Shown here one piece after another: positions 31,743 through 64,000 of a stretch of 64,000 bases of DNA. Numbering within the stretch: position 1 is the stretch's first letter; every line of letters starts with the position of its first letter. The DNA lies in the NCBI GenBank assembly GCA_964514585.1, contig CAZETU010000005.1:1-64000 (forward strand), read 5' to 3'. The position numbers and the translations under genes were made by a program. This DNA comes from Candidatus Woesearchaeota archaeon (GTDB taxonomy: Archaea > Nanobdellota > Nanobdellia > Pacearchaeales > GW2011-AR1). Below the pieces are notes generated by a model, which ran no database searches, was not told the DNA's origin, and worked only from the letters and a program-made list of their open reading frames with translations.

Positions 31743-32279
31743 TTACTTGCTGCCGGCTGGCGTGACGTGTTCAGTGAGAGCAAAGTATGCGACAGATGGG
31801 AAGGAATCCCGAGTCTTTATCTCAAGCAAAACCATTTCCCTTCCATTTATCACAACTTTGTCTCCATTTTTAACGCCAGAGAGATTGACCTCTTCGGGCA
31901 GAGGGGGAATGGTCGATAGGGCCATCAGGTCCATCAGGTCCAATAGGCTGAAGACACCCATAGATAATGAAACCCCAACCAAATACTTTTCGCCTATAAT
32001 GCCAAGCAGACCTGAAATCCCATGCGAGACAATCCTGGACTCGCCACATTCGCAACCACCAAACATCACCCGATCGACGGTTGCGAGGTCTTCGAATCTC
32101 ACGGGCAAAACTGGCTCGTCCGAAAAACAGCCCATGAATTTTTGGTTGAGCATCTCAATAGACGCGGGATAATCGTTTGGGGTCATCAAAGCCTTCATGA
32201 CCCATTGGTTCCCTTCGCTCGCCTCAATGATCTTGGGAACGTTCGAAAACACTCTCTTGCTTGCCTTCTTTTCCGTCAT
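31743..32279 (-). CDS. Hypothetical protein (island)
   Basis: 178-aa ORF with SD-like AGGAAGGA upstream. Confidence 0.6.
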   Translation of the reverse strand: MTEKKASKRVFSNVPKIIEASEGNQWVMKALMTPNDYPASIEMLNQKFMGCFSDEPVLPVRFEDLATVDRVMFGGCECGESRIVSHGISGLLGIIGEKYLVGVSLSMGVFSLLDLMDLMALSTIPPLPEEVNLSGVKNGDKVVINGREMVLLEIKTRDSFPSVAYFALTEHVTPAGSK

Positions 32280-32322
32280 AAAATCAATCCTTCCTATGAA
32301 GCCCCAATTATTACTCTTGTTG

Positions 32323-32385
32323 AAACAAAAAACCCCGCACCATCAAGCTCTCCAAACTTCGAAGAAACTGTATCGGTACGGGGCT
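32323..32385 (-). terminator. Intrinsic-terminator-like hairpin with U tract
   Basis: Minus strand AGCCCCGTACC..GGTGCGGGGTT followed by TTTTGTTT. Confidence 0.55.
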
Positions 32386-32429
32386 CTTCGCCATAGCCCA
32401 GCCACCCCCTTAGCGGACTACCCGACCAC

Positions 32430-33059
32430 TTAGCAGTCTACCAGAATGCGCTCTTTAGGTGCACACTCCACAAGGCTGTTTTCCGTGTCAAACTCGAGAA
32501 TCACGAATTGTTTACCCTGAATTTTGACAACCTCCCCAATTTTTCCAAGGCACATCACGTGAAGATGTACAACGCCGCATTTTTTGGCCGCATCCTTGCT
32601 AGTCGCCCACGTGAATATAGGGATGTTGAATTTCTTGTGAGCTCCATTCGTAACCATGAGATACCCAGGCTGAAATCCTTCAACTCCCAGACAGATAGTC
32701 ATTTCTTCCTGTGCAATCGACGAGAGTTCAACTGGGCCATCCTCAACATTCTGAAAACAGTCCCTATGACTACGGGCAAGTTGTTTTGCCCTGTCAGATC
32801 CCAGGTCAACAAAGGATAGTTCCATGCGAAGACCATAATTCTCCACCTCGCATATACCCTTCCAATTTCTGTACAATACCTTTTTAGCCATAAGCCAATC
32901 CTTTTCGATATAGCCGTCTTCACCATTGAAACCAAAAAGCTCCGCGCCATGAAGTTCATCAAGGCAGTGCGTCATCCGTTGACGCGAAGCTAACCACAGA
33001 CCTCTACCCTTCCCTGTTAGAGGACTATATCGTCGACACTCACCTATCCGCGAACTCAT
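32430..33059 (-). CDS. Hypothetical protein (island)
   Basis: Start MSSRI overlaps the upstream stop (ATGA). Confidence 0.55.
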   Translation of the reverse strand: MSSRIGECRRYSPLTGKGRGLWLASRQRMTHCLDELHGAELFGFNGEDGYIEKDWLMAKKVLYRNWKGICEVENYGLRMELSFVDLGSDRAKQLARSHRDCFQNVEDGPVELSSIAQEEMTICLGVEGFQPGYLMVTNGAHKKFNIPIFTWATSKDAAKKCGVVHLHVMCLGKIGEVVKIQGKQFVILEFDTENSLVECAPKERILVDC

Positions 33060-33268
33060 CCCTTGGCGCGATCGATCCAAAGCGGGTCTTGATCAACAGT
33101 TACCACACCAAACAGCGGGACATACACCACGTGGCAAGCATAAGTTTCATTCGTTTTGTACAATACCCCACCTGGAACACGAAGGACCCAAGTGTAAGGT
33201 GTAATCCGAACATACTCATGCATCTTCAAATTCTTGAGTTCATCTACTGTTAACACCTTTATGTCCAT
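33056..33268 (-). CDS. Small hypothetical protein (island)
   Basis: MDIKVLT start preceded by SD-like AGGAAGGA. Confidence 0.5.
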   Translation of the reverse strand: MDIKVLTVDELKNLKMHEYVRITPYTWVLRVPGGVLYKTNETYACHVVYVPLFGVVTVDQDPLWIDRAKG

Positions 33269-33287
33269 AACAAATTCCTTCCTGGGA

Positions 33288-33845
33288 CTATATCCCAATA
33301 TCGTTGTCATTCGGACCGACACCGAACTCGACCAAGCGATTTATCTCGGCCTCCGTGATGTCAAGACCGTAATCCCCTATCCAGCCCTTCATTTCCTTCG
33401 CTTCTTCTTCTGGCGAAGACCATGGAGGGAAAGAGTCGAGACTCTCAAACATCTCAGTTCTCTTTTTCCCGAGCCGAACAATTTCAGCCTCGCGCTTTTC
33501 AATCTCCCTGTCCATCGCCTCGAGCATAACTCTCTCTAAGGAGACTTTCCTCTCCATCTCCCAAATTACAGAATCCCCCCATTCTGCTCCTTCCCTCTTC
33601 ATGATTTCGAGAATCCCAGAACTCTCGGCGAGATTCTTTTTGAGGAACCATCTTGAATCCCCCAAGAATCCCATCTGGGAATGAATCTTTTCCATCTCAG
33701 AAGAAAGCGCGGCAAACTGTCCCCTTGGACTTTCCCTATACTCCGCGTCATGTTTTCCGGCCACGTTCACCACCCACCCCATCAGACAAAAAATCAAGGC
33801 GATTACCACAACCAACAACAACAATCGTTTTTTCTCACGAGTCAT
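33288..33845 (-). CDS. Single-pass membrane coiled-coil protein (paralog of 36170-36724)
   Basis: N-terminal TM, LERVMLEAM heptads; GAGGTGAG SD. Confidence 0.65.
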   Translation of the reverse strand: MTREKKRLLLLVVVIALIFCLMGWVVNVAGKHDAEYRESPRGQFAALSSEMEKIHSQMGFLGDSRWFLKKNLAESSGILEIMKREGAEWGDSVIWEMERKVSLERVMLEAMDREIEKREAEIVRLGKKRTEMFESLDSFPPWSSPEEEAKEMKGWIGDYGLDITEAEINRLVEFGVGPNDNDIGI

Positions 33846-34218
33846 AACTCACCTCTTCTCTCTGGGAATCAATCCCGATACTGTTGTCTTCCACGACGTT
33901 CACGTCATTGGGCTCATTAGAATCATAAATGTCAAGAAGAGCCCGAGCCTCTTCAACGAGCCTCAGATTTTCCTCGAATCGAGCAGCCCGAGCATCCAGT
34001 GACAATTTTCTTTCTTCTCTCGACTTGCTCTCAAGGTTCTTCAGGAACTCACCCCATTCCGCCGCCGCCTCATCGACTTCGACATTCTTACCCACTCCCC
34101 CTCGAATCGCGATGAATTTTGGAGCAGTAATCCCAGCCAAAAACAAGAGAACAGCTACAGTAATTAGGAGGTCAAGAGGAGTAATCCCAAAGAACCACGT
34201 TCGCTTATGCCACTCCAT
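33835..34218 (-). CDS. Type IV pilin-like protein
   Basis: G|ITPLDLLITVAVLLFLAGITAPKF resembles the prepilin N-terminal helix. Confidence 0.5.
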   Translation of the reverse strand: MEWHKRTWFFGITPLDLLITVAVLLFLAGITAPKFIAIRGGVGKNVEVDEAAAEWGEFLKNLESKSREERKLSLDARAARFEENLRLVEEARALLDIYDSNEPNDVNVVEDNSIGIDSQREEVSYDS

Positions 34219-34392
34219 TATCCACCTACCTTCCCTACGTCCACCATGGTATCGTTTGCGTCCACTCCAGACGTCTCATTCGGATCACCCACCCCATTCG
34301 GATCACACCGAACATCATTAGGGTCAGTTTCCCATGACTTGTCAGCAAAATCACTAGCTAACAAGAATTTGATATGATAATCCTCAAGCTGT

Positions 34393-34475
34393 CTCTCACT
34401 AATAAAAGAGCCATCGGTTGCAGGCCCTAAAACCTACTCATGTTCGCCAATCCGAAGAAAGACTCCCTTCTTCAT
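34393..34475. repeat. Duplicated ~85-bp block (second copy at about 34934-35016) spanning a C-terminus, TAG and hairpin
   Basis: CTCTCACTAATAAAAGAGCCATCGGTTGCAGGCCCT(A/G)AAACCTACTC present twice. Confidence 0.85.
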
Positions 34476-34562
34476 CACGACCACCCCCAGCACCATCGCT
34501 ACAGCCCACCCCATAATCGCTTTCTTTATCGGGAGGGGGATACTACCTTTTTCATTCGACAT
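34434..34562 (-). CDS. 42-aa membrane peptide ending in a TAG, followed by a 71-codon open frame (to 34218)
   Basis: Hand translation MSNEKG..VMKKGVFLRIGEHE*; C-terminus paralogous to 34975 ORF. Confidence 0.45.
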   Translation of the reverse strand: MSNEKGSIPLPIKKAIMGWAVAMVLGVVVMKKGVFLRIGEHE

Positions 34563-34616
34563 CGTCCTGTCTCCTTTTATTGGGCTCATTCACATCGTCC
34601 CCTCACGCCAACTTCC

Positions 34617-34742
34617 CTAATCAATCCAGGTTAGCAACAGGAACAAAATAAACGGTAACAACAACGTCACCGCGATAACCCACCTCGGAATCCTCTTCCC
34701 CTTATATGTCAACATCTCAACCTTTCCTTCCTCGGAAATCAT
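34617..34742 (-). CDS. 41-aa single-TM peptide (absent from ORF track)
   Basis: Hand translation MISEEGK..RWVIAVTLLLPFILFLLLTWID*. Confidence 0.4.
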   Translation of the reverse strand: MISEEGKVEMLTYKGKRIPRWVIAVTLLLPFILFLLLTWID

Positions 34743-34974
34743 GTCCCGATATCGTTCACTTCCACAACACTTATCCAAAAACTAACCAAATACGACCTTT
34801 AAGTCGCAACGACAACAGCAATTGTAATACCACGTCGCGTATTCATACCTCACCGTCCTTTTCCAAGAGTGTCACGCAAATATTATGAGAGGCCTTCACA
34901 TAAAGACCTTATCTCACAACCCATAACCTCTGGCTCTCACTAATAAAAGAGCCATCGGTTGCAGGCCCTGAAAC

Positions 34975-35369
34975 CTACTCGTGCTCGTTCGGATCCAAAA
35001 AGACCCCCTTCTTCATCACAAACACCCCATAGGTTCCGCTATTAAGCTGGACATCCTCACCACTCTCAAAGTCTTTTCGAATCCCTTCTTCGGAGAAATT
35101 GAGCAAAGAGAGTTTCTGTGCCTTTTCCCAGTCTTTCGCCTCAATGTTGCAGAGAAATACCCACATCGTCCCAGACTCTTGATTCCCAGCGTCAGAGACA
35201 ATAAAATAAATCGCCCCCTTCCATCCGATAGGCTCAATTTTCTCAACGACAAACTCACCCCCATTCGCATCACCCACCCCATCTTTTCATCAATGGAACG
35301 AGTAGCTGCGAACGCCCTGCTAATATACCGACGAATTTCAGCTTTGACCCCACTTTTGTCGATTTTCAT
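34975..35369 (-). pseudogene. Hypothetical protein, apparently frameshifted at an A4 run near 35285
   Basis: SD-led MKIDKS..IDEK frame joins the DGVGDANGGEF..EHE frame if one A is added. Confidence 0.45.
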
Positions 35370-35525
35370 TGTTACACTCCCTTATATCCTTAGTCATCAT
35401 TTAGTTCATTTTGCACTCCCCAACACCCACTCCCAATCATTAGAGAACACTAAGGCAGCCTCTGCTCCTAAGCACGCAGTCCCAGAAGCTTTCAGAGCAG
35501 ATCCACCGCGTCATACACACGAGCA

Positions 35526-36119
35526 TCAGTTGCCATTCGCATCCACATCAAGCAAGACAAGTTCGCCCAACATATATGGCTCATTCGGATCAGGATTATC
35601 CGCCGCAATTCTTCTGATTGCATTGTCCATGAGACGCAGCCTATGTTTCCTGTTGAGCCGAATCATCCCTAGAACATGATACTCAAGAGGTTTCCATGTC
35701 GGAGCCTCATTAAGTCTCTCTGCAATAGTCTTCCTGACCACCGAAACCGAATTCATCTCTTCGTACAGTTCGACAAGCTTGACCTTCATCGCTTCAAGAA
35801 CCACTTTTCTCAGCGCGAGGTTCTTCCGAACTTCCATAATCCTCTCTTCTCCCCAGCCATCCCTCTGGAAAAATCTCAACATCTCCAACCAAGCTTCAAT
35901 CTCCAACTCGAGAATTTTCTTGTCGGTCTCAAGCTGACCGATATCAACCTGCAAATCGATTCCCATCATCAAGGTAGTATGCCACTGCCCCCGAAGACTA
36001 CTTCCCCCCTCTCTGTCCCCCTGATTTCGATTCATCAATGCCAAGACCATGGCACTTGCAATCCCAACAATCCCCAGCGTAATCAAAACCTGAATCGACA
36101 TACCTCCGCGTCGTCTCGT
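35526..36119 (-). CDS. Pilin/pseudopilin-like N-terminus plus coiled-coil protein
   Basis: RRRGG|MSIQVLITLGIVGIASAMVL; LRKVVLEAM heptads; the 5' coordinate may extend to 36125. Confidence 0.55.
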   Translation of the reverse strand, partial: TRRRGGMSIQVLITLGIVGIASAMVLALMNRNQGDREGGSSLRGQWHTTLMMGIDLQVDIGQLETDKKILELEIEAWLEMLRFFQRDGWGEERIMEVRKNLALRKVVLEAMKVKLVELYEEMNSVSVVRKTIAERLNEAPTWKPLEYHVLGMIRLNRKHRLRLMDNAIRRIAADNPDPNEPYMLGELVLLDVDANGN

Positions 36120-36169
36120 ATCCATATCCCACCTTTCCTTTCCCTATATTCCCCCGTTGCCATTCAGTT

Positions 36170-36724
36170 CTACTTCACAATATACAGCCACGTATTGGGG
36201 TCGATAAATTCGGCCAAGTTCTTAGGCCAATCAATCCCCTCTCCGTACATGACCAATTCAAGGTTCTTCTCGCTAAGACCCAGCTCATAGGTCTCATTAA
36301 GAGAAAAGACTACTTTCAACTCATCCCACTGAGTCACAGGAGGATCATCACTCACAATCCCACTCTTTTTTTCAAGAGCAACAATTGCAGCGATATGCTT
36401 CTTCTTCTTTTCACCAATCGCATCGAGCAAAATCCTTTTCACCAGGATGATACCCTCCAATCTCCTCAAGGCAGCCCCATCAGAGTAGAACCCCTTCTTC
36501 ATACTCTGTACAACCTTGCCCTTGTTCATCACGTGTCCATATATCTCAAGCTCCACAATACCCACTATCCTGTCGAGCTCACCAATTTTCCTAAGGAGCC
36601 CATCAATCTCTCCCGAAATATCGACATTACCCACCTCTTCTTCGAAAGGAGGAGAAAGAATTGTCACGCTCAAAATAATTACAATCCCCACAATCAGGAT
36701 ATATCTGTTCTTCCGACTGTTCAT
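36170..36724 (-). CDS. Single-pass membrane coiled-coil protein (paralog of 33288-33845)
   Basis: N-terminal TM; VKRILLDAI and YELGLSEKNLELVMYGEG. Confidence 0.65.
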   Translation of the reverse strand: MNSRKNRYILIVGIVIILSVTILSPPFEEEVGNVDISGEIDGLLRKIGELDRIVGIVELEIYGHVMNKGKVVQSMKKGFYSDGAALRRLEGIILVKRILLDAIGEKKKKHIAAIVALEKKSGIVSDDPPVTQWDELKVVFSLNETYELGLSEKNLELVMYGEGIDWPKNLAEFIDPNTWLYIVK

Positions 36725-36976
36725 AAAACACCAACCTTCCCATATGTCCCGTCATCATCCAGTTCGTTTAGCACTCTCCAAAACCCTCTCCAAAAATTGG
36801 AGAATACAAAAAGCAGAGCTCTGCCCCTCAGACATCTCCTCCTCCATGAAAAGAGTCTTTGAGGCAGAGCCCATATGCTACTCGGCGAAACAAAAGCGAA
36901 CTCTACTCCTACGGCTTTGCAGCAGCCAGAAGAAAGCTTTCAAAGTAAAGCTCGCCAAAAATACAACCTCGGCGAA

Positions 36977-37900
36977 TTAGTCGTCCAATCGGCTCCGTTC
37001 AACGGCGACAGCTATAGCCATCTCTTTCGCAAGATCAGTCTTCAATCGCTCGATCCGCCCCTGCTTTTCACCGGAGTAATTATCGAGAACCACAAGATCA
37101 TTCCTACATTTCCCGATTCTCTGATAAAGGACATCGATTTCTAGACCAAGCCGTTCGACGATGTCCCAGCCGCGACGTTTCTCTGAAACAGAGCGTGTCT
37201 TCATGGCTAGTTTCACTTTCTCTACGGCTACCGCCTTCCGAAGCCTGTCGCCTTTCATCTCGACGATCTCGTCCTCGATATCCTTTCTCGAGACAACCAT
37301 CTCCTTCAGTTCCTCTTCGCCCTCACTGATAGCTCGTTCGATTCTGACTATCTCGAATCCGCTCGGCAAAGTCACCCCAACCCCAACCGCTTCATATGGG
37401 TCAATCGCCACCCGCTCTTCAACAATTGGTTCCTCAGGCTCGGTGGCAATCATCTCTTCGACCCCATCCACAACGACAGTCGTAGTCGGCGCCACCGGCT
37501 CATTCGGATCATCCACAACGACAGTCGTAGTCGGCGCCACACTGTTCACGTCAGCAGCCACGATAAGGCCATCACGACCGAATTGCTTAGGCAACTCCCT
37601 GGCAAGCTTAGGCAACTCCCTGGCAATCATCCAGCCTACAATACCCAGCGCCGCAAAACCTATCGCGAGAAAAGCGAAACCGCCAAAAGAAAGATCCTCC
37701 ATGAAGGGAGTTTTCTTCCTCTTCTTAATAACCCTTTTCGCCTTCGCCGTAGCCCTTTTCGCCTTCGGCGTAACCCTTTTCGCCTTCGGCGTAACCCTTT
37801 TCGCCTTCGCCGTAACCCTTTTCGCCTTCGCCGTAGCTTTCTTCGCCGTAGCCCTTTTCGCCTTCGCCGTCTTCTTAATTACCTTCGTCATAATACACAT
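36977..37900 (-). CDS. Membrane protein with Lys/Ala-rich repeat N-terminus and C-terminal coiled coil
   Basis: (AKAKRVT)n, one TM segment, duplicated VAPTTTVVVD, heptad C-terminus. Confidence 0.7.
   Translation of the reverse strand: MCIMTKVIKKTAKAKRATAKKATAKAKRVTAKAKRVTPKAKRVTPKAKRATAKAKRVIKKRKKTPFMEDLSFGGFAFLAIGFAALGIVGWMIARELPKLARELPKQFGRDGLIVAADVNSVAPTTTVVVDDPNEPVAPTTTVVVDGVEEMIATEPEEPIVEERVAIDPYEAVGVGVTLPSGFEIVRIERAISEGEEELKEMVVSRKDIEDEIVEMKGDRLRKAVAVEKVKLAMKTRSVSEKRRGWDIVERLGLEIDVLYQRIGKCRNDLVVLDNYSGEKQGRIERLKTDLAKEMAIAVAVERSRLDD
37731..37871. repeat. 21-bp tandem repeat, about 6.7 copies
   Basis: Unit RCCCTTTTCGCCTTCGSCGTA. Confidence 0.9.
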
Positions 37901-38015
37901 CCTTTTTCAGTTACTGAATATTTTGATGGATTCCCACGCGAGAATCCTTCATCTCAACAACCCAAAACCTCAGGCCCCATAACAAGAACCCAAGAGTCCA
38001 CGCTGTTTCCCAGAA

Positions 38016-45930: not shown

Positions 45931-46953
45931 TTAGATACTCTTCAGCGCCTTATCAATCTCAGAAAATAATTTCCCATAATTAGGATTATACTTCTTCAAC
46001 TTCCCAAGATAAAAATTCAACTTCCCCAAAAATTTTCCAACATCCTTCTCACTCAACTCCTCAGTCCAATCTCCAAACCCAACCTTCTCCAAAAATACAG
46101 CGTTCATGATTTGTTCAATTTGCCCCAACAAAGGAATCGCTAAATAAGGTTTATTCAAATAAATAGCCTCACTCATCAAACTAAACCCCGCTGTCCCAAT
46201 CACACATTTGCAATTTCCCAAATCCCTCAAAAAAGTTTCCCTCGTCCGAAACTCAATATTCCCAACGGTCTTCTTTATATTAAACCCATAAACAACAAAC
46301 TTCTCATCGAACTTCCCCAAAACTTTCAAGCTACTCTTATCACTCTTAGAAAGATAAACCAAAATCGGACCACTAGTCTTCGGCTTCAATTTCTGCACCT
46401 CTCCCCTAACAATCGGCGGCACAATCACGCTATTCTTTTTCCGAGCTTTCAAATTAGCAAACGACGTCACAATAAATTTATCAGCCTTCCGAACAAAAGT
46501 CTTTATAGTTTCTTTAGTCAACAAAAATTCCTTCCGATATTTCCGCGGAACATCAACCTTAAAGTTCGTCAACAAATGCTGATTATCAATACTCACCAAG
46601 GGCAAACGATACCAACAACTTAAAATAGGCACCAACGGTTCCATATCAGAAATACACAAATCAGGCTGAAAATTCTTCATCATGCGATAAAATTTCCGCC
46701 ACCCCAAAAAATTCTTAGGAAAACTTTTCACATTATACCTAAACGTCTTCTTCTTTTTCAAGCTCCCCTTTTCAAAAACCAAATTCAAACCATTAACTTT
46801 CATACAATCAAACTTATCTCTCAAAACATTCCAGCCGTCACCATAGGTCACAATCTTAACCCGATGCCCCCTGTTCTCAAGATACTTCGCAATAAGCAAG
46901 GCTCTAGAAGAATGACCAAATCCAACACCCGCAACACCATACAATATATTCAT
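45931..46953 (-). CDS. MJ1255/VC2487-family glycosyltransferase
   Basis: ILYGVAGVGFGHSSRA, ISDMEP, SIDNQH, TAGFSLMSEA, GQIEQ. Confidence 0.85.
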   Translation of the reverse strand: MNILYGVAGVGFGHSSRALLIAKYLENRGHRVKIVTYGDGWNVLRDKFDCMKVNGLNLVFEKGSLKKKKTFRYNVKSFPKNFLGWRKFYRMMKNFQPDLCISDMEPLVPILSCWYRLPLVSIDNQHLLTNFKVDVPRKYRKEFLLTKETIKTFVRKADKFIVTSFANLKARKKNSVIVPPIVRGEVQKLKPKTSGPILVYLSKSDKSSLKVLGKFDEKFVVYGFNIKKTVGNIEFRTRETFLRDLGNCKCVIGTAGFSLMSEAIYLNKPYLAIPLLGQIEQIMNAVFLEKVGFGDWTEELSEKDVGKFLGKLNFYLGKLKKYNPNYGKLFSEIDKALKSI

Positions 46954-46954
46954 C

Positions 46955-47536
46955 TTAAACAGCCAACCCAATTAAAACACCCTCAATAATCCCAGCAACC
47001 AACAACAAAGGAAAAATAACAAAAACAAAAAACCTCAAACCCTCTCTAAAATTATACCTCAAATTTTTCTTAACATCTTTCCCAAACAGCCCAGTTCCAA
47101 TCTTCAAACCAATTCCAATCGAGAAAAGAATCGCCGGCAATTCAAAAATTCCATGAGGGGCAAGTCGCCATAAAACCAACATCCCACCTTCGTTTACAAC
47201 CTCTCTAGAAACAAACCCAAGCAAATACCCATTAATAATCCCAGTCACCAAAGGAAAAATCCCAGCACCAATCCCAAGAATCATCGCAAAAAAACTCGCC
47301 CTCAAATTATTAAAGAAAATAAAAATTACAATCTCAAAAGAACTCTTCCCCTCAAGCATCGCAACCATCTCCTTCATGAATCCAAAAATCTCACCTCGCC
47401 AAAACACAGGAAAAGCAAACCCTACCAAAAACATCAAAGCAAAAATCCCAAGCGAAAAAACAATATGCCAACGAGACTGAACAAAAAATTTCCAACACGC
47501 CGAATAATTCCTAGCAAAAAATCCCTTCTTCTTCAT
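46955..47536 (-). CDS. SpoIIM-family membrane protein
   Basis: IFFNNLRA, INGYLLG, PHGIFELPA, AGIIEG. Confidence 0.88.
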   Translation of the reverse strand: MKKKGFFARNYSACWKFFVQSRWHIVFSLGIFALMFLVGFAFPVFWRGEIFGFMKEMVAMLEGKSSFEIVIFIFFNNLRASFFAMILGIGAGIFPLVTGIINGYLLGFVSREVVNEGGMLVLWRLAPHGIFELPAILFSIGIGLKIGTGLFGKDVKKNLRYNFREGLRFFVFVIFPLLLVAGIIEGVLIGLAV

Positions 47537-47573
47537 CCCTAATCAAAACATTCAAGTCTTTTATATCTTATTA

Positions 47574-48125
47574 TCAAGCAACCATCTCGCCATAAACCAT
47601 TCTCTTCATTTTTCTTCTGGCAGCATTTAGCCCACTTTTCACAGTCCCAAGAGAAAATTTTTCCAATTCAGAAATTTTACTATACCCCTTCCCTTGTACC
47701 GTACTCATTAAAATTCTCCTCTGTTTATCAGGAAGATCGTCAATTAACCCAAGAGCCAGATCAATAGTATCCTTATCACCAACAACCTCAGTATGATTCC
47801 TATCTCTAGATGGTACCTGTGAAAGAATATCAATCTCACTTCCATCCCCAAATTGATAGTTACCAGAAGAACCCACAGCAGAAACCTGTCTCTGTCTCCT
47901 TCTAATCTCATCAAGACACAAGTTTCGACACATAGTGGCCAAATAAGTAATAGCAGGTCGAGTAGTATCGTAAGTAGTATTATTAAGTGCTCTCACATAA
48001 GTATTTTGACAAACATCCCTAGCATCCTCATCATTAAATCCAAAACTCCTAGCCACACCCATAAGCCTCAGTCTAACAATGTCTATATTCTTCTCTAAAT
48101 AATCAGCTAGTTTATTTTCTCCCAT
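47574..48125 (-). CDS. ECF-type sigma-70 family protein (regions 2 and 4)
   Basis: DEDARDVCQNTYVRAL..TYLATMCRNLCLDEIRRR (region 2); LPDKQRRIL..GYSKISE..SLGTVKSGLNAARRKM (region 4). Confidence 0.82.
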   Translation of the reverse strand: MGENKLADYLEKNIDIVRLRLMGVARSFGFNDEDARDVCQNTYVRALNNTTYDTTRPAITYLATMCRNLCLDEIRRRQRQVSAVGSSGNYQFGDGSEIDILSQVPSRDRNHTEVVGDKDTIDLALGLIDDLPDKQRRILMSTVQGKGYSKISELEKFSLGTVKSGLNAARRKMKRMVYGEMVA

Positions 48126-48176
48126 ACAAAAACTCCATAAAAAACCCTTTAATACTTATCGTTATCAGAGTGAGCA

Positions 48177-48821
48177 CTACTTAGAAAAATATTTACTAAT
48201 CATCTGCGTCTTCCTCGGATACTTCTTCTTAAGATAAAACCCATAGCCAACTCCAACAATCAAACCACCAAGATGAGCAATATTCCCAATAGGAAGACCA
48301 AGCCCAATCGAAAGAGCCCAAAGTGCAACCATCAAAAATACCATCGCAGCCCACATCGGCATAGGTATAACAAAGAAAACCAAAACTGGTAACCGTGGAG
48401 TTAAAACTGCCAAAAGTCCACCAAGTCCAAAAATCGCACCCGAAGCACCAACGGCATAAACATTTAAATCAATCCCAGTCAAACCAGCAATCGCCACAAA
48501 AAACAAACCAGCAAAAAGCCCAGCCCCAAAATAAATAGCCAAAAATCTCTTCTTCCCAACAAGTCTCTCAACAAAACTTCCAATGAACATCAACGAAATC
48601 ATATTCACAAACAAGTGCCCAATCCCCGCGTGCATAAACATGCTCGTAACAAAAGTCCAAAGAGCATGACCAGCCAAAATCATCGAAGGCTGTAAAGCAA
48701 TCAAAGAAATCGCTCGACTCTCATCCATAACATTCATTAAAATCAAAAACAAAACAAAAGCTATAACATTCACACCAATAATAATCCCAGTATAGCTAGA
48801 AAAGATACTCTTATTTTTCAT
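48177..48821 (-). CDS. Rhomboid-family intramembrane serine protease
   Basis: FMHAGIGHLFVNM, GASGAIFG, AHLGG. Confidence 0.93.
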   Translation of the reverse strand: MKNKSIFSSYTGIIIGVNVIAFVLFLILMNVMDESRAISLIALQPSMILAGHALWTFVTSMFMHAGIGHLFVNMISLMFIGSFVERLVGKKRFLAIYFGAGLFAGLFFVAIAGLTGIDLNVYAVGASGAIFGLGGLLAVLTPRLPVLVFFVIPMPMWAAMVFLMVALWALSIGLGLPIGNIAHLGGLIVGVGYGFYLKKKYPRKTQMISKYFSK

Positions 48822-48823
48822 GA

Positions 48824-49657
48824 TTATTTTTTCTTTCCAACGGCTTTCTTTATTTTGTTAAAGACGCTAATTTTCTTCTTAGCAACAATTTTCTTAACAA
48901 CTTTCTTCTTAGCCAAAATTTTCTTAACAACTTTCTTCTTAGCCAAAATTTTCTTAACAACCTTCTTCTTCACAGGAGCTTTCTTCTTGACAATTTTCTT
49001 AACAACCTTTTTCTTTGGAGCAAGTTTTGCCCTTGCTGCTGCCCTTGCTGCTTTGAGTATAGCCTTCTTCTCAATCTCTTCCTTAGCAAGTTTCTTATCG
49101 GCTCTAGCCCTCTTTTTAGATTCTTTATCTCTAATATTCACAAGCTCACCTTGAATCAATTCCAAATTCTTCTCAGTTCTCGTAATCTTAGCCTTAGTAT
49201 CTCGAATGGCTCCACTATTATCAGACAACTCATAAACCTCAGCGCATTCCTCACAAGTAAACCCATGTTCAAGACCCTTCTCCTCGCTAACCTCAATCCC
49301 ACAAGGTTTACAAATATAAAATCTCTTCGTCTCCCGACTATTCAGCGTCGCATTAAAATCCCCAATCTTACGAATCAAAGATTGCTCCAATACAACCAAG
49401 CATTTCTCAATCTTCAACGTCCAATAATAAATATACCAGCCCTTCCTTTTATCTTTCTTCCTAATAAAAGAAACAAGCCCGTCGGCAGAAAGCTTATATA
49501 AAATATTTCGAACCTGATTTATCGTCAACTCCATTTTCTTTGCTATCAAAAACTCATTAACATCTTTCTTTCCAAAAAGAATCTCAACTATACGGCCGGT
49601 CCCAACACCTGCCAATTCCTCGACGAGATCATGTAGAAGTTTAACTTGCATGTACAA
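48824..49657 (-). CDS. tfe: Transcription factor E (alpha) with a long Lys-rich C-terminal tail
   Basis: wHTH INQVRNILYKL..GWYIYYW, CKPC..CEEC zinc ribbon. Confidence 0.88.
   Translation of the reverse strand: MYMQVKLLHDLVEELAGVGTGRIVEILFGKKDVNEFLIAKKMELTINQVRNILYKLSADGLVSFIRKKDKRKGWYIYYWTLKIEKCLVVLEQSLIRKIGDFNATLNSRETKRFYICKPCGIEVSEEKGLEHGFTCEECAEVYELSDNSGAIRDTKAKITRTEKNLELIQGELVNIRDKESKKRARADKKLAKEEIEKKAILKAARAAARAKLAPKKKVVKKIVKKKAPVKKKVVKKILAKKKVVKKILAKKKVVKKIVAKKKISVFNKIKKAVGKKK
48871..48970. repeat. 30-bp tandem repeat (about 3.3 copies) in the TFE tail
   Basis: CTTTCTTCTTAGCCAAAATTTTCTTAACAA units encoding KKVVKKILAK. Confidence 0.9.
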
Positions 49658-50838: not shown

Positions 50839-52593
50839 ATGAACAGAAAAGAACTAATCAAGAAATATATTGAATTCTTCAAGTCGAAAGACCACGCCGA
50901 AATTAAAAACTCAAGCCTAATCCCAGAAAACGATCCAACGGTTTTATTCACAACCGCAGGAATGCAACCATTAGTGCCAAATCTATTAGGCGAATCCCAC
51001 CCTCAGGGGAAAAGATTAGCAAACGTCCAACGATGCATTAGAACCGTAGACATAGAAGAAGTAGGTGACACATGCCACCATACCCTTTTCGAAATGCTCG
51101 GAAACTGGTCTCTAGGCGATTATTTCAAAAAAGAAGCAATCCAAATGACATTTGAATTTGTAACAAAAGTTCTAAAATTACCAATTGAAAGATTAGCAGT
51201 ATCAGTTTTCAAAGGAAACGAGAATGCCCCAAAAGATGAAGAATCCGCAGAGGCTTGGAGGTCATCAGGGTTCCCTCAGGAAAGAATTGCATTTTTAGAA
51301 GCAAAAGAAAATTTCTGGGGGCCCGCAGGAGAAACAGGACCATGCGGACCAAATACCGAAATATTTTATTGGAAGCTAAATGATGTTCCAGCACCAAAAG
51401 AATATGATTACACCGACGAAAACTGGGTAGAAATCGGAAACGATGTCATTATGGAATACGAAAAAGACAAAAAAGGAAATTACAAACTTCTTAACCAAAA
51501 AAATATTGACTTCGGCGGCGGCGTAGAAAGAACAGTCGCAATTCTTAACGGCCTCGAAGATAACTATCTAGCAGACATGTGGCAACCAGTAATAAAAGAA
51601 ATAGAAAAAATCTCAAATAAAAAATATGAAGATAATAAAAAAGAAATGCGAATCATAGCAGACCACATCAAGGCAGCAACTTTCATAATCGCCGATGGGG
51701 CAGTCCCGGGCAATGCAGAACAAGGCTATGTCCTAAGAAGACTAATTAGAAGAGCAATCAGAAACCTAAGAAAAATAGACATCCCAATTTTAGAAATGGA
51801 TGCAACAGTTGAAATCGCAAAAATAATAATCGACATCTACGACGATTACGAAATATTACAAAACAACAAAGAAAAAATATTATCAGAGCTAAAAGCCGAA
51901 GAAGACAAATTTCAAAAAACTCTCGACAAAGGATTAAGAGAATTCGAAAAAATGAGCTCAGACGACAAAATCGACGCAAAAGAATCATTCCTACTTTACC
52001 AATCATACGGCTTCCCAATCGAAATGATAAAAGAGCTAGCAAAAGAAAAAGGAATCAAAGTCGACGAAAAAGGTTTCAACAAAGAATTCAACAAACACCA
52101 AGAACTTTCACGTACAGCCTCAGCAGGAAAATTCAAATCCGGTCTAGCAGATAATTCCGACGCAACAAAAAAACTACACACAGCTTGCCACCTCCTTAAC
52201 GAAGCCCTCAGGGTTGTTCTAAAAAACAAAGAGATTTTCCAGAAAGGTTCCAATATCACACCAGAAAGATTACGTTTCGATTTTAACTTCGATAGAAAAT
52301 TAACAGACGAAGAAAAACAGGCAATCGAAGATTTAGTAAATAAAAAAATTCAAGAAAACATACCAGTAGAATTACAAGAACTAACGTTAGACGAAGCAAA
52401 GCAACAAGGAGCCCAAGGTGTATTCGACTCAAAATACGGAGACAAAGTAAAGGTCTACTCTGTTGGAGATTTTAGCAAAGAAATTTGCGCAGGCCCCCAC
52501 GCCGAAAACACTTCAGAATTAGGAACCTTCAAAATCAAAAAAGAACAATCAAGCTCTTCGGGCGTTAGAAGAATCAAAGCAGTACTTGAATAA
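50839..52593 (+). CDS. alaS: Alanine--tRNA ligase (short form lacking the C-Ala domain)
   Basis: LFTTAGMQP, FEMLGNWSLGDYFK, GPCGP, DHIKA, editing HTACH..EICAGPH, ends GVRRIKAV. Confidence 0.95.
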   Translation: MNRKELIKKYIEFFKSKDHAEIKNSSLIPENDPTVLFTTAGMQPLVPNLLGESHPQGKRLANVQRCIRTVDIEEVGDTCHHTLFEMLGNWSLGDYFKKEAIQMTFEFVTKVLKLPIERLAVSVFKGNENAPKDEESAEAWRSSGFPQERIAFLEAKENFWGPAGETGPCGPNTEIFYWKLNDVPAPKEYDYTDENWVEIGNDVIMEYEKDKKGNYKLLNQKNIDFGGGVERTVAILNGLEDNYLADMWQPVIKEIEKISNKKYEDNKKEMRIIADHIKAATFIIADGAVPGNAEQGYVLRRLIRRAIRNLRKIDIPILEMDATVEIAKIIIDIYDDYEILQNNKEKILSELKAEEDKFQKTLDKGLREFEKMSSDDKIDAKESFLLYQSYGFPIEMIKELAKEKGIKVDEKGFNKEFNKHQELSRTASAGKFKSGLADNSDATKKLHTACHLLNEALRVVLKNKEIFQKGSNITPERLRFDFNFDRKLTDEEKQAIEDLVNKKIQENIPVELQELTLDEAKQQGAQGVFDSKYGDKVKVYSVGDFSKEICAGPHAENTSELGTFKIKKEQSSSSGVRRIKAVLE

Positions 52594-62599: not shown

Positions 62600-64000
62600 C
62601 TATTCCTCTAACCTCTTCCTAAGCTTCCCAACCCTCTCACGAATCGCAATCGCCCTCTCAAACTCAAGGCACTCAGCCGCCTCTTTCATATCAGCCTCCA
62701 ACTCAATAATCACATTCGCAACCTCAGCCCTAGGTATACTCTTTATGTCCTTAATCTCCACAACCTTCTCCTTAATCGGCTTAACAATCGTCTGCGGCAC
62801 AATCCCATTCTTCTCATTATACTTCTCCTGAATTTTCCGCCGCCTCTCAGTCTCACCTATTGCCCCCCGAATCGACCCCGTAATATTATCAGCATAAAGA
62901 ACAACCCGAGCGTCCCTATTCCTAGCCGCCCTTCCAATAATCTGAATCAAACTCCTCTCATCCCTAAGGAAACCCTCCTTATCAGCGTCAAGAACCCCAA
63001 CAAACCCAACCTCCGGAATATCAATCCCCTCCCTAAGCAAATTAATCCCAACCAAACAATCAAACTTCCCCAACCTCAACTCCCGAATAATCTCAGTCCT
63101 CTCAAACGTATCAATCTCCGAATGCAAATACCGACACTTAATCCCATTCTCACCAAGAAAATCAGTCAACTCCTCAGCCATCCTCTTAGTAAGCGTAGTA
63201 AGCAAAATCCGATTCCCATCCTTAACAGTCCTCCGAATCTCTCCCAAAACATCCTTAATCTGTCCTGGATAATTTTTACTATCAATAATTTCTTCCAAAA
63301 CCTCAGGAACACCCGAAGCAACATTACTCCCAAAATGTTTTTTATTTTCATAAACCTTAAACTTAGCCCCCAATTTCTCAGCATTTTCCTCCCCTCTAAA
63401 AAAAGGTACAATAGAATCATCTCTCGAATGAATAACTACAAAATCTTTACAATGAGATTTTATTTTTTCAAAATCATAACCATCTTCTGTGTAAAATCCG
63501 TCACCACTTCCAGTTCTCCCCTCCCTATCAGGATTTCCAGAATTCGTACTCACCAAAATAACCCGCTTAACCTTTTCCCCCTTAGGAAGTTTTTCCAACC
63601 ACCTCAAAAGTGTGACACCTCCTCTAGAATGACCAACCAAAATACTGTTTTTATCAACCTTCATCTTATCAAGCTCATTGAACCATTCTTTCAAAACAGG
63701 CTCGCTCCCTTCGGGTAAAGTCGGAGCAAAAAAGTCAATTCCTTTATTCTCAATTTCTTTTCTCAGCCAAGGATACCACTTGTCATTCGGGAGAGCATTC
63801 TTGCCATGAAGAAGAATCACATTGCTAACTTCCTCTGTCTCACTAGAAGACGAAATCCCCCGAATCTCAACCTCAGGATCAATAAGCCCAGTCGGCCGAA
63901 TAATCTGCTCAACCACCCCCAAGCTATTCAGACCCTCATAATTCCCCGGCGTCGCCGAAACAAAAACAACCTTATTCTTTTTCATAACATCCTCAAACTC
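62600..64000 (-). CDS. uvrB: Excinuclease ABC subunit B (5' part outside window) with an alpha/beta-hydrolase insert
   Basis: FVSATPG, EQIIRPTGLIDP, TTLTKRMAEELT, VGINLLREGID, LIQIIGRAARN, LEFERA (UVR domain). Confidence 0.93.
   Translation of the reverse strand, partial: EFEDVMKKNKVVFVSATPGNYEGLNSLGVVEQIIRPTGLIDPEVEIRGISSSSETEEVSNVILLHGKNALPNDKWYPWLRKEIENKGIDFFAPTLPEGSEPVLKEWFNELDKMKVDKNSILVGHSRGGVTLLRWLEKLPKGEKVKRVILVSTNSGNPDREGRTGSGDGFYTEDGYDFEKIKSHCKDFVVIHSRDDSIVPFFRGEENAEKLGAKFKVYENKKHFGSNVASGVPEVLEEIIDSKNYPGQIKDVLGEIRRTVKDGNRILLTTLTKRMAEELTDFLGENGIKCRYLHSEIDTFERTEIIRELRLGKFDCLVGINLLREGIDIPEVGFVGVLDADKEGFLRDERSLIQIIGRAARNRDARVVLYADNITGSIRGAIGETERRRKIQEKYNEKNGIVPQTIVKPIKEKVVEIKDIKSIPRAEVANVIIELEADMKEAAECLEFERAIAIRERVGKLRKRLEE

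Follow-up and report, generated by a model that had tools for sequence, protein, structure and literature searches.

Archaea are held to initiate transcription only via TBP, TFB and TFE. No sigma cycle is known in the domain, according to a description of its transcription factors (PMC7289017). Sigma-70 class genes (fam00359) were reported in DPANN archaea, especially Woesearchaeota, in 2021 (Castelle et al., Front Microbiol, PMC8204110); the available text of that paper excludes mis-binning, reports no anti-sigma factors and leaves the mechanism open. Our literature search returned no later functional study of DPANN sigma factors. What, then, might an archaeon do with a bacterial transcription factor? 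We examined this question at a single locus in a 64,000-nucleotide stretch of a Candidatus Woesearchaeota archaeon genome (hereafter the window; contig CAZETU010000005.1, assembly GCA_964514585.1). There, a minus-strand gene at 47574..48125 encodes a 183-residue protein that an earlier note, made from the sequence alone, had described as a complete bacterial-type ECF sigma factor embedded in an archaeal gene string.

A genuine ECF sigma factor in an archaeal chromosome

Profile searches confirmed that the protein carries both region 2 and region 4, the check that the earlier note had proposed. Sigma70_r2 (PF04542) matched residues 20-79 at 42.9 bits (Pfam cut-off 24). Sigma70_r4_2 (PF08281) matched residues 126-173 at 26.3 bits, a narrow pass over its cut-off of 25.7, and at 28.1 bits in a whole-genome search. 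The size and layout of an ECF factor were borne out by the NCBIfam sigma70-ECF model TIGR02937, which spans residues 15-175 at 55.3 bits (cut-off 42.9). Only regions 2 and 4 match and the sigma1.1 and sigma3 domains are absent, within the ECF size range of ~170-220 residues. We map sigma2 to residues ~20-83, a linker to 84-125 and sigma4 to ~126-178. Hallmark motifs are present in regions 2.2 (A-x-D-x-x-Q), 2.3/2.4 ((W/Y)L..xRN.C.D..R), 4.1 (LP...R) and 4.2 (GTVKS). The best specific NCBIfam models are Bacteroidota-type ECFs and SigW, all far under their equivalog cut-offs, and the closest solved relatives by sequence are SigW, SigL, SigE and SigH.

Structure prediction agreed with this assignment. 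An AlphaFold2 model built from a 52-sequence alignment (mean pLDDT 89.3) has two helical domains and a less confident linker, with the four helices of sigma2 at pLDDT 94-98. The top 15 Foldseek matches in the PDB are all ECF sigma chains or models (E-values 1e-5 to 3e-4), among them SigL, SigH, SigE, RpoE, SigW and AlgU. The two domains are oriented differently relative to each other, which keeps TM-scores low (0.33-0.43). We could also reject a merely generic region-4 helix-turn-helix: region 2 is over its cut-off, and PF04542 matched none of four archaeal control genomes, whereas PF08281 matched all four. The product of 47574-48125 is a genuine group-4 (ECF) sigma-70 family protein.

The gene's surroundings are archaeal, as the earlier note had supposed. 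The window encodes CDC48, a family-B DNA polymerase (PolB), FEN1, TrmB, Nre and TFE-alpha, and the source genome (1.04 Mb, 18 contigs, 89.65% complete) falls within the 0.5-1.2 Mb range of its relatives. In this 89.65%-complete genome, the sole RNA polymerase (RNAP) large-subunit locus scores 733+263 bits against archaeal RpoA1 versus 180 bits against bacterial RpoC, and no bacterial RNAP alpha subunit was found. Region-2 and region-4 profile searches identify our gene as the genome's only sigma factor. A chimeric assembly can be rejected: across assemblies of different samples from ENA (MEGAHIT), JGI and Logan, at least 24 contigs encode an identical sigma protein flanked by the same genes on either side, and their DNA is ~100% identical to the window, one indel excepted. 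Both junctions are thus independently reproduced, and the sigma gene belongs to the chromosome of a small archaeon of the DPANN (Pacearchaeota/Woesearchaeota) type.

Several other features of this genome caught our attention. The RNAP largest subunit lies in one open frame of 1152 residues (G000 contig C4:40306-43641) that matches the archaeal A' model as well as the C-terminal portion of the bacterial beta-prime model; the subunit is apparently unsplit, with A' and A'' fused, unlike in most archaea. Within the window, a block at 32000-38000 has a GC content of 0.47-0.49 (~0.37 elsewhere) and may be a foreign island; the ORF tested there (36977-37900) has no Pfam match. The alanyl-tRNA synthetase (50839-52593) comprises a catalytic core and SAD in 584 residues (582 in its orthologue in a second genome of the genus, G053), and apparently lacks the usual C-terminal part. 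Finally, an ORF at 62600-64000 that runs off the end of the window has an odd architecture, in which the Helicase_C, UvrB and UVR (UvrB C-terminal) domains accompany a Ser_hydrolase/alpha-beta-hydrolase match at residues 57-225.

An insertion slot in a conserved three-gene unit

The gene order given in the earlier note is correct, with all five genes on the minus strand. The TFE-alpha gene (tfe, 48824..49657; PF02002 55 bits, TIGR00373 104.5 bits) probably starts at the ATG at 49651, giving 275 residues as called in JGI contigs. A rhomboid intramembrane protease gene follows 2 nt past tfe (48177..48821; PF01694 111.7 bits). Beyond the sigma gene come a SpoIIM-like membrane protein gene with five predicted helices (46955..47536; PF01944 83.3 bits) and, overlapping it by 17 nt, a glycosyltransferase gene (45931..46971; PF13528 279 bits).

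Comparison across the genus shows how this string arose. The spoIIM-like gene is core (PF01944 in 45 of 49 genomes), and the 29 loci that we read typically run tfe, rhomboid, spoIIM-like, with nre next on the other strand; in 17 of them a 4-nt overlap (...ATGA...) joins rhomboid to spoIIM-like. A sigma gene occupies the rhomboid/spoIIM-like junction in 2 of 30 genus genomes examined, the window's and G053 (loci L096/L128), and in a 1.5-kb metagenome contig (L133), whose protein P0005 was the third-best match in a search of 1.8 billion representatives. Other species hold unrelated orphan ORFs without Pfam matches at the same junction, or a short promoter-bearing spacer. The glycosyltransferase is a second, separate insertion between spoIIM-like and nre: followed by a 104-residue ORF, it is common only to the window and one other of the 29 loci (L123), while in most the spoIIM-like gene lies directly against nre. 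The string is therefore a conserved three-gene unit with a sigma gene wedged in, not a sigma-centred module.

This history removes the meaning that the earlier note had attached to the sigma gene's place in a TFE-rhomboid string, as the conserved unit is sigma-free in most genus loci. With sigma at the slot in only three lineages, adjacency to tfe shows no functional link; we reject a link to any of the three unit genes (tfe, rhomboid, spoIIM-like) as unsupported, since the ancestral unit exists without sigma. Among 42 sigma matches in the order's loci, one other independent locus (L093) lies near tfe, which by a rough estimate is about what chance gives. Neither the SpoIIM-like protein nor the rhomboid can be an imported anti-sigma module, because both predate the insertion; the gene next to sigma is an ancestral core gene and not a cognate anti-sigma. 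The earlier remark that no anti-sigma is evident was upheld on two counts: zf-HC2 has no match in the whole genome, and only ~24 residues precede the first membrane helix of the SpoIIM-like protein. A cognate anti-sigma is usual for ECFs and not defining, some bacterial ECF groups having none.

The three-gene unit has its own peculiarities. The co-orientation of tfe, rhomboid and spoIIM-like is conserved across the genus (window 46955-49657; loci L104-L132), pairing a general transcription factor with two membrane proteins in one operon, a puzzling combination. The TFE-alpha C-terminus (48824-49100) forms a Lys-rich tail of repeated VVKKI(L/V)AKKK units with weak HC2/histone-H1-like matches, and a 30-nt indel among metagenome copies yields 265- and 275-residue forms.

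We surveyed promoters of the 642 genes in the genome that are preceded by a spacer of 40 nt or more. TATA-like hexamers peak at -29..-27 from the start codon (328 in this bin versus ~30 in neighbouring bins), and Shine-Dalgarno-like motifs are rare (57 of 642). The sigma gene conforms to this pattern: a TATA-like box, TATTAAA, starts 29 nt before its ATG (48148..48154, minus strand), and is likely the archaeal promoter of a leaderless sigma transcript. In the 51-nt spacer that holds this box, we saw no convincing two-block ECF motif (-35 AAC / -10 CGT type), although the window copy is divergent. The sigma copies of L133 and G053 have TATA boxes at -28/-29, and tfe has a TTTAAA box at -27 if it starts at 49651. 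A second box, ATATAAA, lies 29-30 nt before the spoIIM-like ATG (47560..47566, minus strand) and fits the same position profile. In sigma-less relatives, a 4-nt overlap ties the spoIIM-like gene to rhomboid, and the gene lacks a separate promoter; the 47560..47566 box would then be a new promoter that restored expression of the downstream genes after sigma insertion. The likely transcription units are tfe-rhomboid, sigma alone, and spoIIM-like-glycosyltransferase (possibly with the 104-residue ORF). We infer from these signals that the sigma factor is expressed by the archaeal machinery as a leaderless mRNA.

Descent and constraint of the slot copies

The slot copies have diverged far more than their surroundings. 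The window and L133 sigma proteins are 34% identical, against 83% for the rhomboid C-terminus and 66% for the SpoIIM-like protein. Window and G053 sigmas share 22%, versus 41-74% for seven neighbouring proteins (TFE 74%, AlaRS 68%, Nre 60%, SpoIIM-like 56%, ORF120 44%, rhomboid 42%, ORF221 41%), and the L133 and G053 sigmas share 29%. Synteny, not a tree, groups the three: a free quick tree of 77 ECF sequences is poorly resolved, pairing the window copy with P0005 at an SH-aLRT of 81. Constraining the trio as one clade gave a log-likelihood 44 units above the free search (p-AU 0.9), so that the AU test does not reject a single origin and, if anything, leans towards it. On a tree of four flanking proteins, the sigma carriers are scattered, with three changes, of which the starred branches force at least two, and closer relatives are without the gene. 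No sigma remnants were found in sigma-less slots. We read this pattern as an old insertion that probably descended vertically but patchily, with repeated clean losses and at two to three times the rate of sequence change seen in its neighbours. Alternatively, a hot-spot may have received independent insertions more than once.

The earlier note had proposed that the sigma factor was horizontally acquired. It is indeed bacterial-type in kind, but a recent transfer is rejected: GC content (0.382) and codon usage (57th percentile of the genome) are native. Together with the canonical TATA box at -29, these values indicate a gene foreign in kind and long resident. No donor could be named from the search of 1.8 billion representatives, in which identity to any sequence is at most 35% and the best non-orthologous match, at 32%, is a bacterial protein that adjoins a PASTA kinase. 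A word-indexed protein search returned almost nothing beyond the sigma factor itself, and a scan of genome contigs gave only two distant Bacteroidota matches. A viral origin is likewise without support: phages in GenBank encode distant ECF sigmas, and neither IMG/VR nor the GenBank phages contain a close relative, nor does the locus have viral neighbours.

These searches also bear on the suggestion of an effector against a bacterial partner, in which the protein would enter, or be expressed in, a bacterial host cell and redirect its RNAP. Phage-encoded ECF sigmas do redirect bacterial RNA polymerase, phages do carry distant members of the family, and here the features needed to bind a bacterial core enzyme all seem intact. 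We consider this reading very improbable. The N-terminus has no signal-peptide-like hydrophobic stretch and a KD scan predicts no membrane helix; the promoter is of the archaeal leaderless type with no conserved Shine-Dalgarno; no secretion or transfer gene is linked, the neighbours being ancestral housekeeping-type genes; and a close viral relative is missing from the databases searched. A k-mer search for a shared promoter-like motif gave none either: neither the upstream spacer nor genome-wide counts of 12- and 14-mers yielded a candidate target for the sigma factor, the counts returning only apparent within-gene repeats, as judged from the words alone.

Could the gene instead be a weakly selected or neutral passenger, an old bacterial import that drifts fast in a permissive hot-spot and is repeatedly lost? 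Its rarity at the slot (two of 30 genomes and one metagenome contig), the scatter of carriers on the local gene tree, the 22-34% identity among slot copies against 41-83% for neighbours, and the orphan ORFs that use the same junction in other species would all fit. Patchy presence and very fast change fit weak or conditional selection equally well. We find the passenger account doubtful, since three lineages whose copies are now only 22-34% identical all retain an intact frame and a well-placed promoter, and the residues that survive are functional hallmarks. The lack of decaying remnants in sigma-less slots points to loss by clean deletion rather than slow decay. Moreover, the family is kept in ~40% of the sampled genomes of the phylum. 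Region 2 exceeds the Pfam cut-off in 15 of 49 genomes of the genus, 62 of 201 of the order and 162 of 401 in the phylum sample; at E <= 0.001, 43 of 100 genera in the order have a match, and the phylum tally is 167 genomes, three of them unpublished (G550, G471, G603), or 164 of 398 without these, which enter into no other result.

Elsewhere in the order, ECF-like sigma genes recur in two contexts: directly upstream of a gene for a ~600-residue protein, and between convergent genes encoding ~360 residues and 330, 347 or 234 residues (loci L069, L070, L090, L091; and L068, L072, L080, L081, L095). Tandem sigma pairs are common (L069, L075, L090, L092, L093). The strongest order-wide region-2 matches (65-75 bits, for example L032-L046) come from 260-330-residue frames that score poorly against the ECF profile, so that these archaea may have another class of sigma-like proteins, distinct from ECFs.

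We then asked which residues have held while the slot copies diverged. All three pass the Pfam cut-offs for both domains, and of 153 aligned columns they agree in only 18, including A35, Q40, Y61, L62, N68, C70, R75, L131, G145, I151, K163 and S164. These 18 columns sit at the most conserved positions of bacterial ECFs (mean information content 2.80 versus 1.72 bits, a value reached in none of 20,000 permutations); the profile that guided the alignment came mostly from bacterial-type sequences and so tilts the outcome towards hallmark positions. Of the 25 columns that bacterial ECFs conserve best, ten are invariant across the three copies. Among 33 archaeal ECF-like copies in the order, retention is highest at D37 (85%), L131 (85%), Q40 (79%), T161 (79%), R75 (76%) and K163 (76%), and per-column conservation tracks the bacterial profile (r = 0.54). 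In bacterial sigmas, the beta-prime clamp helices are contacted by the D-x-x-Q face of region 2.2, and the -35 element is recognised by the TVKS(R) helix. With both conserved, polymerase docking and DNA reading both look constrained in the archaeal proteins. The window copy departs from the usual recognition helix in that G165 and A168 replace arginines, a change that may shift its DNA specificity or weaken its DNA binding.

This constraint pattern also weighs on a simpler role, that of a stand-alone helix-turn-helix repressor or activator that binds DNA through sigma4, perhaps also sigma2, and makes no contact with RNAP. Region-4-type helix-turn-helix domains are common in archaea, as the four matching control genomes illustrate, the sigma4 recognition helix is conserved (T161, K163, S164), and archaea have no known sigma cycle. 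A plain regulator of this kind would not need the clamp-contact motif of region 2.2, and yet that motif is among the best-kept positions (D37 and Q40), with region 2 over its Pfam cut-off in every slot copy. We therefore regard a stand-alone regulator as unlikely; the conservation of region 2.2 favours some RNAP-type partner.

A proposed role and its precedents

Our preferred reading, to which we assign a probability of roughly 45%, is that the archaeon makes the protein for its own use, as an accessory transcription regulator that it can dispense with and that would dock on a clamp-like surface and read DNA. The sigma gene occupies an optional slot, wedged into an otherwise overlapping rhomboid/spoIIM-like junction, and has resided in the lineage long enough to take on a native composition and an archaeal TATA promoter. 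On our proposal, residues A35, D37 and Q40 of the conserved sigma2.2 face would contact a surface resembling the clamp helices, plausibly the clamp coiled-coil of archaeal RNAP, while sigma4 would read a DNA site. The homologous surface is the Rpo1 clamp coiled-coil, which is bound by TFE and Spt4/5. To our knowledge, docking of a sigma factor on an archaeal polymerase has never been demonstrated. In the absence of a classical anti-sigma, control may be exerted via the sigma gene's own transcription. The protein's identity and fold, its archaeal context, the insertion history, the promoter and the constraint pattern are established here, whereas expression, DNA binding and contact with the archaeal polymerase are inferences.

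A bolder version holds that archaeal ECF-like sigmas act as sigma factors proper on the archaeal RNAP, with region 2.2 on the TFE-Spt4/5 clamp site and sigma4/sigma2 selecting special promoters. We judge this improbable. If true, it would amount to a sigma-type initiation route in Archaea, either independent of TBP/TFB or in competition with TFE. Polymerase-docking and DNA-reading residues that have stayed intact raise the question of how compatible transcription machineries are across domains. The locus offers a natural experiment on this question, comprising three orthologues in one slot, far diverged with hallmarks held, each with an archaeal promoter.

The protein most resembles bacterial ECFs such as B. 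subtilis SigW (5WUQ), M. tuberculosis SigH/SigL (5ZX2, 6DV9) and E. coli RpoE (1OR7), with which it shares the sigma2-linker-sigma4 layout in ~180 residues, the hallmark motifs of regions 2.2, 2.3/2.4, 4.1 and 4.2, and its best sequence and fold matches. It differs in its host, where no bacterial core enzyme is in view and no anti-sigma partner accompanies it, in having an archaeal TATA box instead of a recognisable autoregulated promoter, and in carrying G165 and A168 in place of arginines. Auxiliary 'rpoS'-like genes on DPANN viruses and prophages (PMC12647753, Nat Commun 2025) are also sigma-family and DPANN-associated and are accessory there; the window copy, in contrast, sits between conserved chromosomal genes.

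The nearest precedent is DPANN fam00359 (PMC8204110). As far as the available text of that paper describes it, the two are alike in being sigma-70 genes with archaeal flanks in small DPANN genomes, with no anti-sigma and with TBP/TFB/TFE-type machinery also present, and the prevalence reported there agrees with ours in the order and the phylum sample. On the same text, sigma-70 genes in DPANN were already published in 2021 and this locus is incremental; that account covers presence only. To it we add the history of an insertion slot, slot copies that keep their hallmarks at 22-34% identity, and a canonical archaeal TATA box at -29.
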